Positions 46,957 through 51,582 of a DNA stretch of 64,000 nt are shown here, piece by piece. Each line of letters begins with the position of its first letter. Within the stretch, counting starts at the first letter, position 1. The stretch comes from Escherichia coli O157:H7. GTDB lineage: Bacteria > Pseudomonadota > Gammaproteobacteria > Enterobacterales > Enterobacteriaceae. Below the pieces are notes generated by a model. It did not search any database, was not told the DNA's origin, and saw nothing but the letters and a program-made list of their open reading frames with translations. Both the position numbers and the translations under genes were made by a program. The stretch is taken from NCBI RefSeq assembly GCF_013167455.1, contig NZ_CP038328.1; one strand, written 5' to 3'.

Positions 46957-46984
46957 GCCGGAGTGGGCGAACACCCACTCCGGC
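46957..46984. terminator. Perfect 11-bp GC-rich hairpin between convergent artJ and the accessory sulfatase gene (putative bidirectional terminator)
   Basis: GCCGGAGTGGG-cgaaca-CCCACTCCGGC; lies in the 50-bp gap between the two stop codons; no strong U-run on either side. Confidence 0.45.
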
Positions 46985-46996
46985 AAAATCACTTCT

Positions 46997-48478
46997 CTAC
47001 GCTAATCCCAGGCGCTGAAACTGCTCTGGCGGCGCATCATTATCTTTCATCAACTGAATCAGCAACGCGATCATCCGGGACTCGATCACATCATCATGAA
47101 TCGGATGTAGCTGCTGCGGATCGTTTTGCAGATCAAACAGCAAATGACCAAACTGATTCAACCCCTTATATTTTTCCTGTGCCGGGATGCGTAATACCTG
47201 TAACCCTTTGGTAAAACGAAACGGTGGGGCCAGCGATAAAGCCCGCATCTCATCCACCGGATAGCGGCTGTTCATTTTGCAGGACATCAACGTGTAGTTG
47301 GCAATATCATCCTCACGCCCCGGCAGCGCTGCACGCATATACACATAACGCCCATCAGTTACGTTAGCATGACCACTGAAAACACCAAACATCGCCGAGC
47401 TGCGTACTGGTTCATCGTGACTGACCGTTTTCGCCAGCGGTTGCCCCTGCACATCGGGCGGCACTGGCTGTTGAAAAAAGTCATACAACGTTGGCGCCCA
47501 GTCGATCATTTGTACCAGTGCCTGTCGCCGCTCTCCTTTTACACCACTGCGCGGGTTCCAGATAAACAACGGATTATTGGCAACTTCGTTGTAATAAGGC
47601 ATCTGGTTTTTCGCCCACCAGCCATGCTCACCGAGTAAAAAGCCGTGGTCAGTGCCGACAATCAGCATGGTATCTCGCCACAGATCGTGCTCATCCATCA
47701 GGTCGAGAATGCGCCCCAGGTTGCGATCGCACATCGACACCAGCGAACGATACCGGCAACGGATGTGCTCCACGGCCTCGTCGCTTTCCTGCACCCGGCC
47801 ACGCGGCCAGTCATAATGCGGTCCATCCCAGTTATCTTCATACAAGGAAAGATACTCTTCCGTTGTGTGAAACGGCTCGTGCGGATCAAACGTTTCGATC
47901 TGCAATAACCAGTTATCTTCCGCGTGATTTTTGTGGATAAAGGCACAGCCTGCATCAAACACTTTAGTTTGTGGAAAATCCGCTTCCTGCTGAATATATT
48001 CCCGGTTTGCCCAGTCATGGCGCCACAGACCAGAAACACCGCCACCGGTCTGCTTTTGCGGCACCCGTAGCACCTCGGGAATAGGCGGTTGCGCAACGCT
48101 TGCATGCCAGTGATCGCCTTCCTGTCCGCGCACAATCTCCCACGAACTGTAGCGATTATGATAATTCCCGCCGCCATCTTCCCAGTAATGCAAATGATCG
48201 CTTATCAGGTGGGTATAGATCCCCGCCTTTTTAAGCAGCTCCGGCATGGAATCGTCAAACGGTTCTAACGGCCCCCACTCCCGATGCAGGAAGTTACATC
48301 GCCCGGTATGCAACTCCCGCCGGGCAGGCATACACGGCATACTGCCGACGTAACTGTTTTCAAAGGTGGCGGCATGAGCCGCCAGACGTTGGAAATTAGG
48401 CGCTTTGGTTAACGCATCGCCATAAGGTGGCAGATAACGTTTATTCAGACTATCGAACAGCAGAATAATCGCTCTCAT
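46997..48478 (-). CDS. Accessory Cys-type sulfatase-family protein (alkaline-phosphatase superfamily), predicted cytoplasmic
   Basis: 493-aa ORF; sulfatase signature C49-M-P-A-R53 followed by RELHTGRC; no N-terminal signal peptide; last gene of a three-gene minus-strand cluster. Confidence 0.85.
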   Translation of the reverse strand: MRAIILLFDSLNKRYLPPYGDALTKAPNFQRLAAHAATFENSYVGSMPCMPARRELHTGRCNFLHREWGPLEPFDDSMPELLKKAGIYTHLISDHLHYWEDGGGNYHNRYSSWEIVRGQEGDHWHASVAQPPIPEVLRVPQKQTGGGVSGLWRHDWANREYIQQEADFPQTKVFDAGCAFIHKNHAEDNWLLQIETFDPHEPFHTTEEYLSLYEDNWDGPHYDWPRGRVQESDEAVEHIRCRYRSLVSMCDRNLGRILDLMDEHDLWRDTMLIVGTDHGFLLGEHGWWAKNQMPYYNEVANNPLFIWNPRSGVKGERRQALVQMIDWAPTLYDFFQQPVPPDVQGQPLAKTVSHDEPVRSSAMFGVFSGHANVTDGRYVYMRAALPGREDDIANYTLMSCKMNSRYPVDEMRALSLAPPFRFTKGLQVLRIPAQEKYKGLNQFGHLLFDLQNDPQQLHPIHDDVIESRMIALLIQLMKDNDAPPEQFQRLGLA

Positions 48479-48489
48479 TACGCCCTACC

Positions 48490-48810
48490 TTATTGATTAA
48501 TTAAATGCGGAAAATGTTGCTGAACCACTTCATAAATTTGCTGACCAATAGTTTCACCGTCCATAATATTCTCTATCGGAATCAAATATTGCCCTTGTTT
48601 CGGGTCAAGACTAACCACATCGAGTAATTTTTTGGAAATAGCAAAAATATCCGCCCAGTCGGTAAATCCGCCGACTTCACCTGCGGCGGTATGTTCCATT
48701 TCAACTTTGAAATCATATTTGGTCAGCGCTTTTTTAACGACCGTTTGTAACATAACGCTACTGCCTACACCGTAACCACAGACAAACAGAATATTAATTG
48801 TATCTTTCAT
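48490..48810 (-). CDS. Accessory PTS EIIB component, L-ascorbate (UlaB/SgaB)-like family
   Basis: 106-aa ORF MKDTINILFVCGYGVGSSVM... with the CGxGxGSS phospho-cysteine loop characteristic of ascorbate-family EIIB. Confidence 0.8.
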   Translation of the reverse strand: MKDTINILFVCGYGVGSSVMLQTVVKKALTKYDFKVEMEHTAAGEVGGFTDWADIFAISKKLLDVVSLDPKQGQYLIPIENIMDGETIGQQIYEVVQQHFPHLINQ

Positions 48811-48831
48811 TTTTAAACCCTTAATATTTAA

Positions 48832-50175
48832 TTAACCCGCGTAAGGACCAAGATGGAATGTTGCAGCGATAAATTTCAGAACTTCACAAATAGCAGGCCA
48901 TACGGTTGCCCAGTCAAATATTCCTGTCCAGCCGACGCCATTTTCAGCAAGCCCGGTTAACGGAATAGCCCACACCGTACCGAAGGTCTGAATAATACCC
49001 AGCAAGAACGTACAGATAATTACGGAACGGTATCCGCCCATGCGGTTTGCTAATACGCCAATTGGACCGCCAGAGAAAAACAGAGGTACAAAGCCAGGCA
49101 ATACCATAATTGGGCTGTGAACCAGTAATAAGATCCCCATCGAAAAAATGGTGCCAAAAGTACAGAAGACGAAGCCTAACGTTGCGGCATTGGGTGAAAA
49201 AGGTAACAGCGCTGCAACATCGACAGCAGGAATAGCGTTAGGAATAAAGCGATCTTGCCAGCCTTTAAACGAACCGTTAATTTCGCCCACCATCATGCGC
49301 ACACCCTGCAGCAGAATGACCATATACATGGAGAACTGTAAGCCAAGGTTGATGATATAGATGTACCAGGGCTTGCCTTTCGCCATTAACTGGACATTAT
49401 CGATACCCGTTGATAGCAAGAAACCACCGACAAACAGCGTCATCACAATGGCGATAGCCGTTACGTTATGGTTAAAAATCGCCAGCCACCCGGGAAGTTT
49501 CAGGTTTTCAGCATCGTGCTTTTCAGGGTCACCAAATTTATGGGCGAATTTGGAGAAAAACCACAATCCCAACATCTGGTTATGAGCAATGGTAAAACCG
49601 GCATCTTTGGTAACTTTGGCAATGGGCTTAACAATGAGCGTGGTGGAGAACGCCCAGAATACACCCGTTAATATTCCGGCAATAATAATGGATGTAGTCC
49701 AGCTAAAACCCAGCCAAAAGACAATCAACCATAATACCGCCTGAGAATGTGAAACACCGGTATTCCCTGTCAAAAATATCCCTTTGGCACCAGTATACCG
49801 ACCAAATAATACCAGCAGCAGGTTGGTAAAAAACGCCAGTACAAATACATACCCGACATAACCAAAATTATCCCCCAATGCAATTTGCGTTGCCGCTTTC
49901 ATTGCGTAGGAATCCATTAAATATCCGTGAACACCATAGGCTTTACTTACGGCTTCTGCTACCGGTTTAAATGTTGCGGAAAACTGGAAACCACCAAATA
50001 ACACCATCATTAATCCCACCATGGCGCTGACCATGCCGGTAATAATTTTTATTGGCGATTTCTTATCAAGGGCATAACCAATACCCACCAGCAAACCAAT
50101 TAAAATTGCCGGTTCAGTTAAAAACGTTTGAATAACATCTATGAATTTGGCAAACATCGTCGGAACGCCCTCCAT
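48832..50175 (-). CDS. Accessory PTS EIIC permease, L-ascorbate (UlaA/SgaT)-like family
   Basis: 447-aa polytopic membrane ORF; N-terminal third resembles recalled UlaA (e.g. ...FKPVAEAVSKAYGVHGYLMDSYAMKA... versus UlaA ...[27 protein letters not shown]...); an alternative start at the Met 6 codons downstream has a better GGAGG Shine-Dalgarno. Confidence 0.85.
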   Translation of the reverse strand: MEGVPTMFAKFIDVIQTFLTEPAILIGLLVGIGYALDKKSPIKIITGMVSAMVGLMMVLFGGFQFSATFKPVAEAVSKAYGVHGYLMDSYAMKAATQIALGDNFGYVGYVFVLAFFTNLLLVLFGRYTGAKGIFLTGNTGVSHSQAVLWLIVFWLGFSWTTSIIIAGILTGVFWAFSTTLIVKPIAKVTKDAGFTIAHNQMLGLWFFSKFAHKFGDPEKHDAENLKLPGWLAIFNHNVTAIAIVMTLFVGGFLLSTGIDNVQLMAKGKPWYIYIINLGLQFSMYMVILLQGVRMMVGEINGSFKGWQDRFIPNAIPAVDVAALLPFSPNAATLGFVFCTFGTIFSMGILLLVHSPIMVLPGFVPLFFSGGPIGVLANRMGGYRSVIICTFLLGIIQTFGTVWAIPLTGLAENGVGWTGIFDWATVWPAICEVLKFIAATFHLGPYAG

Positions 50176-50365
50176 ACGCGTACATTTCCGTTGTCAATGC
50201 ATGAACCTTCTGCTGACGTTAATAATGTCTCAGGAAATTTTGTGTTTCGCTAAGCAATGCCTCTGTATGTATTCGGTAAGTGCACTGTAGTAATCAAAAC
50301 AGTTCAATTAAAGATCTTATTTGATTATTTGTGATTTGATTTGCAAAAATAGAGCAATATATAAC

Positions 50366-50401
50366 CGTGATCGATCGGTTATTATTAATCGATCGATCAC
50401 G
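50366..50401. promoter_or_regulatory. Perfect 12-bp inverted repeat with 12-nt AT spacer upstream of the accessory PTS cluster (candidate operator or RNA structure)
   Basis: CGTGATCGATCG-gttattattaat-CGATCGATCACG, about 190-225 nt upstream of the EIIC start and 54-89 nt downstream of the rlmC stop. Confidence 0.35.
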
Positions 50402-50454
50402 ATTATTATTTTGGATGGATGTATGCCGAGGTGATATTGATTTGAATGATGTAT

Positions 50455-51582
50455 TTACATTTTTACCAGCAGCGTCAGCACTTCATAGTGCGCGGTGTGC
50501 GGGAACATATCAAAAAGCTGTACCCGTTCGATGCGGTAACCTGGCAGTTCGCGGATATCTTTCGCCATGGTTTGGGCGTTACAGCTGGAGTAGATAATAA
50601 AACGCGGTGCCATCGTTGAGAGATAATCACACAGCGGTTTACCAATGCCGCGGCGCGGCGGGTTAACCAGCACCAGCTCCGGCACCTCCCCCTGAGCGGT
50701 GGCAAACTGAGTGGAGTCCAGCGCCTGAAATTGCAGACGCGTTAAGCCCAGTTCAGCGGCTGACTGCTTTGCACAGGCAATGGCCTCTAGCGCAATTTCG
50801 ATCCCGGTTAACTGCATGTCAGGCGTCGCGCAGTGTAAACCAAAGCCCCCCACACCGCAGAACAGATCCCACATATGTTTAACCGGCAGCTGTCGTACCC
50901 AGTCGCGCGCGGTAGCGTACAGCTGGCTGGCGACCGCCGGATTAGTCTGGAAGAAACTTTGCGGACGGATCCACAGCGGCACATCGTTAAAACGCTCTAC
51001 CAGCGCCTGTTGTTCGGTCAGGTAGATCTCCGTCTCCCCTTCCATAATCGCCATATGTACCGGCTGAATATTGACGGTGATAACTTTTAGCTGCGGCAAT
51101 TGTGCCTGTAACCACGGCAATGCCTTACGCAGTTGTGCTAGTTTGGTTTCAGAACGCAGTACAAAGCGCAGCATCATGCCGCCATCGCTCTGGCTTTCAG
51201 TCAGCAGAATGTATTTCAGTTCGCCACGCTTACGCGCCACGTTGTAGGGCGTTAACCCCGCTCGGGCGATAAACGGTTTTAGCGCCGCAAAAACGGGCGC
51301 AAATGAGGCAGGATAAAGCGGGCAGTCACAAAGGTCTTCCGGTGTGCCGTCGCGATGCAGCATACCGAGCAGTGGTTTTTCAACGCTACCACTCACCACC
51401 ATTTTGGCTTTATTACGAAACCCTTGTTCCGGGCCTGACACCGGCGCGCACCATTCCTCAACCGGAAAGTCGGCGAGCAGATTTTTAAGATCGGCGGTTT
51501 TAGCGGAGAGTTGCTCTGGAATCGGCTGCGTTATCCACTGACAGGAACGACAGCGACCCGCGTCGTAAAGTGCGCACTGCAT
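50455..51582 (-). CDS. rlmC: 23S rRNA (uracil747-C5)-methyltransferase RlmC (RumB)
   Basis: 375-aa [28 protein letters not shown]... with N-terminal Cys cluster and SAM-dependent methyltransferase core. Confidence 0.93.

Follow-up and report, generated by a model that had tools for sequence, protein, structure and literature searches.

A hairpin with compensatory base-pair changes downstream of rlmC in Escherichia coli O157:H7 probably belongs to the end of the rlmC transcript

We analysed a stretch of 64,000 nucleotides from Escherichia coli O157:H7 (contig NZ_CP038328.1 of assembly GCF_013167455.1), hereafter called the window. In the region considered here, it is 100% identical to Sakai and EDL933. 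On the minus strand, potI, ybjO and rlmC are followed by the genes for an EIIC, an EIIB and a sulfatase, while artJ is convergent on the plus strand. A preliminary description had pointed to an inverted repeat in the gap between rlmC and the EIIC gene and had considered three roles for it, namely the operator of a dimeric repressor, a stem-loop terminating rlmC transcription, or the remnant of an insertion junction. The genes that frame the gap, and the repeat itself with its immediate flanks, are as follows.

50455–51582, minus strand: rlmC, the 23S rRNA U747 methyltransferase gene (TIGR02085, 731.7 bits), with its stop 54 nt upstream of the stem.
46997–50157, minus strand: PTS-sulfatase operon, comprising a SgaT/UlaA-type EIIC (48832–50157), an EIIB (48490–48810) and a sulfatase (46997–48478).
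50366–50401, minus strand: core palindrome, in which 12-bp arms flank an AT-rich spacer of 12 nt; interpreted as a stem-loop in the RNA of the rlmC/PTS sense strand.
50361–50406, minus strand: extended stem of 17 contiguous pairs, one U.G among them, plus three inner pairs closing a 4-nt loop (MFE structure).
50402–50411, minus strand: A-rich tract 5' of the stem, AAAATAATAAT, with the core AAATAATAA invariant in 12 of 12 alleles.
50356–50365, minus strand: U-rich tract 3' of the stem, GUUAUAUAUU, with UUAUAUAUU invariant in 12 of 12 alleles; candidate interrupted terminator tail.

The 279 bp given previously for the gap are correct if counted to the start at 50175, which opens a 447-aa EIIC reading frame. 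The conserved EIIC start codon is the ATG at 50157, and the distance to it is 297 bp. The gene content (EIIC, EIIB and sulfatase alone) bears out the earlier statement that the cluster encodes no regulator; it holds no EIIA either, and no regulator was found in or beside the cluster in any genus compared. By inspection, the sulfatase (46997–48478) has a Cys-type CMPAR motif and no obvious signal peptide, which suggests a cytoplasmic sulfatase coupled to a PTS without an EIIA and regulator of its own.

In Salmonella and Yokenella, too, the cluster lies between rlmC and artJ and shows a synonymous divergence like that of the flanking genes; it is therefore not a recent insertion. It is more likely, as judged from these comparisons, that the cluster is ancestral at rlmC-artJ and was lost in K-12. 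This makes the premise of an acquired insertion doubtful and marks the PTS-sulfatase cluster as long established at the locus, not as an island that arrived recently. Within E. coli, the cluster occurs as two deep haplotypes (46997–50157 versus loci L002 and L010), whose four-fold-site identity is 0.55–0.70 for EIIC, EIIB and sulfatase. The same comparison gives 0.975 for nearby ybjO, so that the divergence peak is centred on the cluster. Outside Escherichia and Salmonella, its surroundings differ. In Leclercia, Silvania and Enterobacter, the cluster adjoins an arylsulfotransferase gene, and Leclercia has a radical-SAM/SPASM (maturase-like) gene further upstream. In Yokenella (L009, 1977–5690), an OmpR-type two-component system and two oxidoreductase genes are inserted between rlmC and the PTS cluster; the oxidoreductases are of the molybdopterin-binding and cytochrome b561 types and resemble msrP/msrQ.

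The letters at 50366–50401 read CGTGATCGATCG-GTTATTATTAAT-CGATCGATCACG, which is the perfect palindrome of 12-bp arms and 12-nt spacer that had been described, with CGATCG within both arms. It forms part of a longer repeat, whose 21-nt arms (50361–50381 and 50386–50406) are 90% complementary across a gap of 4 nt. Each arm comes close to being a 10-bp palindrome itself, and the two centres lie 22 bp apart, about two helical turns. To judge how exceptional such a repeat is, inverted repeats with perfect arms of 12 bp or more and a loop of 3–20 nt were counted in the window and in 100 first-order Markov simulations of it. The window holds five, against a simulated mean of 0.08 and a maximum of 2, which excludes chance as the origin of the repeat. 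Two of the other four have proper A and T tracts and are canonical terminators. On the sense strand, the O157 RNA is predicted to fold with −28.1 kcal/mol (z = −8.1), and the value is about −28 on either strand. The 12-mer of the arm occurs twice in the window, as the two arms themselves. Its GTGA and TCAC are 26 bp apart, compared with TGTGA-N6-TCACA for CRP, so the spacing is, as noted earlier, wrong for this regulator.

Within E. coli, the palindrome is confined to genomes that carry the PTS-sulfatase cluster. Of 5426 complete E. coli genomes, 566 have the intergenic region of 279 bp, each of them once and in every case with rlmC and the EIIC gene on either side, and the palindrome is found in none of the other 4860. 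A BLAST search with a 56-nt query centred on the palindrome, which followed the earlier proposal to look for further copies, returned no other place in the 5426 genomes; each genome shows two BLAST places because the palindrome aligns with itself on either strand. A plasmid collection yielded nothing relevant. In a metagenome scan for TGATCGATCG-N9-14-CGATCGATCA, the AT-rich spacer was seen at the E. coli locus only, among at least 120 matches listed, the remaining ones being high-GC coding DNA or (GATC)n microsatellites. Comparison with K-12, also proposed earlier, showed that this strain has neither the cluster nor the palindrome, which is accordingly no native part of its rlmC 3' region. 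In K-12, rlmC is directly followed by a different hairpin and by what by eye seem to be REP-type elements. The last rlmC codon differs as well (VKM* versus VKQ* in K-12), and the indel relative to K-12 begins at the rlmC stop.

The position of the palindrome relative to the operon promoter follows from conserved sequence blocks and a published start-site map, which together define these features.

50277, minus strand: operon transcription start site, mapped to the window from EDL933 position 1024881; the base is an A, 7 nt after TACAGT.
50284–50289, minus strand: −10 hexamer TACAGT of the PTS-sulfatase operon, of which T, A and the final T are conserved.
50327–50348, no strand assigned: CRP-like 22-mer with the core TGTGATTTGATTTGCA at 50330–50345, centred at −60.5.
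50391, plus strand: minor antisense start site inside the palindrome (EDL933 1024767, minus strand).

An alignment of the upstream regions of ten loci from five genera revealed a block common to all of them, consisting of TTTTGCA(A/T)AT-N-TCACAAA, the CRP-like site and TTTGATTAyTAcAGTG. The −10 hexamer (50289–50284) and a start near 50277 were first predicted from this block and then matched a site mapped by Cappable-seq. This is the single gene start site of EDL933_RS04920, at EDL933 position 1024881 (PMC10469882, Tables S5 and S7), and it was detected in four of four stationary-phase and zero of four exponential conditions (PMC10469882). The CRP-like 22-mer is identical at 22 of 22 positions in Salmonella arizonae and diarizonae, while three other genera keep the half-sites with a spacer that varies. 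By itself, the match to the consensus does not reach significance in the window; we therefore infer the CRP-like site from its conservation, its position and the growth-phase pattern. The promoter layout of the operon is thereby documented: hairpin, CRP-like site at −60.5, −10 hexamer and a start mapped only in stationary phase. Relative to this start, the palindrome occupies −89 to −124, upstream of the CRP-like site. With the start at 50277, it is therefore outside the PTS mRNA and in the 3' region of rlmC.

Several further elements were seen in this interval. A promoter-like TCGGCA-16-AATAAT just upstream of the palindrome was rejected, as its −35 and spacing are unconserved, its match is at chance level and no sense start maps there. 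The antisense start at EDL933 1024767 was seen in one of eight conditions (PMC10469882, supplementary file 7); TATTAT in the spacer (50380–50385) could be the −10 of this start at 50391. Between the CRP-like site and the −10 hexamer lies another inverted repeat, TAATCAAAACAGTTC / GATCTTATTTGATTA (50291–50305 and 50313–50327). Parts of the stretch 50291–50327 are conserved across all genera, also across those that lack the palindrome, and this repeat would be a better candidate operator for a specific regulator of the operon than the palindrome. The 58 nt directly upstream of the EIIC start (50158–50215) are 76–78% identical between E. coli and Salmonella, compared with about 40% for the remainder of the leader of about 120 nt; they may be a translational or small-RNA target site.

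To follow the palindrome over a larger distance, we turned to Salmonella, for which additional loci were gathered through the protein cluster. In Salmonella enterica, rlmC is again directly upstream and the promoter is the same. The 45-nt slot of the palindrome is occupied by a hairpin of different sequence, ATACAATCAATTGA-9 nt-TCAATTGGTTGTAT, which contains no GATC. Its full form is ATACAA(T/C)CAATTGA-TTATTTAAT-TCAATTGGTTGTAT between AAATAATAA and TTATATATT (loci L160-L170, L172 and L173, also L163). From the arm CATGATCGATCG of S. arizonae to ATACAATCAATTGA of S. enterica, five to six positions per arm are replaced, and both symmetry and pairing are retained. All arm differences between the Salmonella lineages are transitions, and they occur in matched pairs on both arms. 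In the group of Escherichia, S. arizonae and S. diarizonae, the arms are conserved around an invariant core, ATCGATCG, with a spacer of 12 or 11 nt and with compensatory states at two pairs. Both the sequence of the loop and its length differ among lineages (12, 11 or 9 nt). In the alignment, the outer stem pairs 14-17/56-59 are invariant and the pair 18/55 covaries.

Among 12 alleles, both sides have changed in 8 of 18 pairs, and 95.8% of cells are paired; the pairing of the hairpin is thus kept by compensatory change. The covariation score of these alleles is 0.431, compared with 0.214 ± 0.025 after shuffling (reached in 0 of 500 shuffles) and at most 0.133 with slid partners, with most of the double changes falling on one branch, S. 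enterica versus the rest. A first test with eight alleles had not been significant (59 of 500 shuffles reached the score), and the result became decisive once the S. enterica alleles were added. Every allele folds strongly, with −20 to −28 kcal/mol and z between −4 and −8. The allele of E. coli KK05-19 (L037), in which a single ATCG unit is gone from one arm, still gives a 16-pair hairpin of −23.4 kcal/mol; the unit was probably lost by slippage.

How much of this conservation would be expected without selection can be gauged from four-fold sites, whose identity between O157 and Salmonella is 0.35–0.44 for the cluster genes and 52–57% for rlmC and ybjO. Neutral sites are therefore near saturation, so the conservation of the hairpin is selective and the constraint is on pairing. 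It is the structure and not the sequence that is conserved over the Escherichia-Salmonella divergence, which speaks for a terminator or a stem-loop at the 3' end of rlmC and against both an operator and a Dam switch.

The distribution across genera points in the same direction. Every locus at which rlmC lies directly upstream in the same orientation has the hairpin; this applies to Escherichia species, all sampled Salmonella lineages and locus L163. A comparable hairpin is missing from Leclercia, Silvania and Enterobacter, in which the CRP-like site and the −10 hexamer are retained and the upstream gene is the divergent arylsulfotransferase. In Yokenella, where the two-component system separates rlmC from the cluster, a different hairpin directly follows a co-directional kinase gene. 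The hairpin therefore tracks the end of a co-directional upstream gene and not the PTS promoter. At the O157 locus, no other strong hairpin was found between the rlmC stop and the operon promoter.

We consider it probable that the palindrome is an ordinary stem-loop in the rlmC RNA, where it ends or protects the message, likely as a weak or partial intrinsic terminator. This was one of the three options raised in the preliminary description, and it is the one best supported by a pairing that is kept while the letters change, in a hairpin that follows co-directional rlmC. The RNA running out of rlmC on the minus strand would fold into the stem-loop 54 nt past the stop codon. Set between the invariant A-rich tract and the U-rich UUAUAUAUU, the stem-loop would end the rlmC transcript and protect its 3' end, and it may act as a terminator in both directions. 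The stationary-phase promoter of CRP type from which the PTS-sulfatase operon is transcribed, starting 89 nt further on, would thus be shielded from read-through. The acting molecule would be the sense-strand RNA, and its effect termination or 3'-end formation. If so, the hairpin is an element of an ordinary kind, and a small, clear case of a stem-loop at a gene end that has evolved by compensatory change.

The comparison with known terminators supports this reading in part. Like intrinsic terminators, including bidirectional ones, the element is a stable stem-loop shortly past a stop codon and before the next promoter, with the stem 54 nt after the rlmC stop and 89 nt before the operon start. 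It also shares with them a pairing kept in evolution by compensatory change, as the covariation among the 12 alleles indicates, a loop free to vary, and invariant A-rich and U-rich flanks able to pair together. Unlike a canonical intrinsic terminator, it has an interrupted U-tract, with six U in nine on the sense strand. The weighted T score of this tail is 1.6–2.6, compared with 2.1–5.5 for the two canonical terminators of the window, and a rough d'Aubenton-Carafa-type score is −15 to −41 versus −7 to +42 for the same two. The stem is also unlike a canonical one in being 17–18 bp long and rich in A and U, above all at its base in S. enterica; the GC content of the hairpin is 42% in O157 and 19% in S. 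enterica. Where a short loop of 3–8 nt would be expected, the loop is up to 12 nt long: it measures 4 nt in E. coli only with the three inner pairs formed, and 9–12 nt in Salmonella. A consensus terminator scan called the plus strand only in O157, and neither strand in S. arizonae or S. enterica. The element may accordingly be a weak or factor-assisted terminator, a stem that protects the 3' end, or a processing site.

With the REP/BIME elements that stabilise 3' ends, it has in common that it is a hairpin in a 3' untranslated region, and the rlmC-artJ gap of K-12 itself contains, by eye, elements of the REP type. REP/BIME elements are multi-copy and GC-rich, whereas this element is single-copy, with one place in each of 566 genomes, and unrelated in sequence. 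A repeated extragenic palindrome is ruled out by this copy number.

Which of the two strands acts is a question of its own. One-sided changes inside the stem appear as G.U on the sense strand at pairs 18/55, 20/53, 21/52 and 24/49 and as mismatches on the other strand, and only one internal cell goes in the opposite, antisense-favouring direction. At the pair that closes the loop, eight alleles have A.C on the sense strand, and with this pair counted, the strands pair equally well (96.0% versus 96.5%). The S. enterica hairpin folds with −20.3 kcal/mol as sense and −15.9 kcal/mol as antisense RNA. The sense strand is thus more likely, but not proven, to be the acting strand, a choice that rests on few events.

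The alternative, that the hairpin acts mainly on the plus strand and halts antisense transcripts from the PTS region before they reach rlmC, appears rather unlikely to us. It would account for the better U-tract on that strand (AUUAUUAUUUU) and for the O157 scan, which calls a terminator there only. It would also give a role to antisense transcripts, which have start sites at EDL933 1026324 (window about 48834, plus strand) and within the palindrome, and the hairpin after K-12 rlmC likewise carries a T-run on the antisense side. Against this stand the G.U intermediates at four internal pairs, which favour the sense strand, the weak antisense fold in S. enterica (z = −2.1), and the antisense start sites themselves, which are minor and condition-specific.

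A further question is whether the pairing reflects function at all. The arms of a palindrome can correct each other by intrastrand templating, a process known in E. coli as quasi-palindrome mutagenesis. Templated correction of this kind could produce compensatory-looking changes without any selection for RNA folding, and the palindrome would then be a functionless quasi-palindrome, kept symmetric through template switching and carried within a conserved regulatory block. The Salmonella arm differences, all of them transitions in matched pairs, would suit such a process, as would slippage in the allele that is one ATCG unit short. Yet the element has persisted since the Escherichia-Salmonella split despite near-saturated four-fold sites. 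Instant templated correction would leave no one-sided intermediates, but G.U states are found at four pairs. The A-rich and U-rich flanks are invariant, and the element is absent exactly where there is no co-directional upstream gene. We regard this explanation as unlikely.

It is similarly doubtful that the hairpin is a cis-acting RNA structure of an undescribed type rather than a plain terminator. RNase III might process such a structure, or it might serve as a roadblock or as an element of conditional read-through and so meter rlmC transcription into the operon. The hairpin is long, AU-rich and of two turns, and it has no canonical terminator features. No Rfam family matched at gathering score, the hits being microRNA-hairpin noise only (e.g. 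21 bits versus 89). A literature search by locus tags, motif string and rlmC/artJ/sulfatase returned no account of the element, and a published small-gene list has no entry in the region. Counting against a terminator is also a contrast within the locus: the hairpin after the sulfatase gene has been swapped for unrelated ones in Salmonella and Yokenella, whereas the rlmC hairpin has stayed homologous.

The first option of the preliminary description, an operator, would here take the form of a DNA operator or auxiliary site at −106.5, beside CRP, for a dimeric or tetrameric regulator of the operon. A perfect dyad whose arms are each near-palindromic, with centres 22 bp apart, is what such a regulator might bind. 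The palindrome is also contiguous with the highly conserved block that runs through the CRP-like site, and the core ATCGATCG does not vary within Escherichia, S. arizonae and S. diarizonae. As a dyad upstream of a CRP-type site at about −61, the palindrome resembles lac O3 at −82, an auxiliary operator upstream of a class I CRP site. Unlike operators of the lac O3 type, however, it has half-sites and a spacing that vary among orthologous loci, and it has neither a cognate regulator nor a related main operator. The arms are replaced at five to six positions in S. enterica with their pairing kept, and no spacing is fixed (12, 11 or 9 nt by lineage). The cluster lacks a regulator gene in every genus compared, the 5426 E. 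coli genomes contain no second copy of the palindrome, and three genera have the same promoter without the element. The half-sites are not enriched in the window, where near-matches with up to two mismatches number nine against 6.1 expected. The position at −89 to −124, upstream of both start site and CRP-like site, also speaks against this option. None of the operator consensuses compared (LacI-family, FNR, Fur, LexA, NagC/Mlc, NikR and QacR IR1) fits by inspection. We find an operator improbable, which removes the tempting lead of an orphan operator for a repressor of the EHEC accessory sugar system.

The remnant of an island insertion junction, the other option raised earlier, is very improbable. 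The indel relative to K-12 does open at the rlmC stop, where the last codon differs, and the 40 bp next to rlmC are variable among alleles. The palindrome, however, is under constraint and placed about 50 bp inward of the junction, no matching repeat at the artJ end and no recombinase site was found, and Salmonella and Yokenella have the cluster at this locus too, with flank-like divergence. A Dam-methylation switch for epigenetic or phase-variable control, for which the four GATC sites inside 50369–50398 might be taken, is highly improbable given that the homologous S. enterica hairpin lacks any GATC and that the locus is unmentioned in the methylome papers checked.

Two minor observations concern the rest of the cluster. 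EIIC shares 68–69% identity with Bacillaceae proteins (from Neobacillus niacini and Bacillus species; L013, L014, P0006 and P0009), a value that looks unusually close for different phyla. At the far end of the operon, between the convergent artJ and sulfatase genes, lies a perfect 14-bp hairpin (46954–46987) with no T-run on either strand, whose loop is inverted between E. coli alleles, reading TGTTCG in one and CGAACA in the other.
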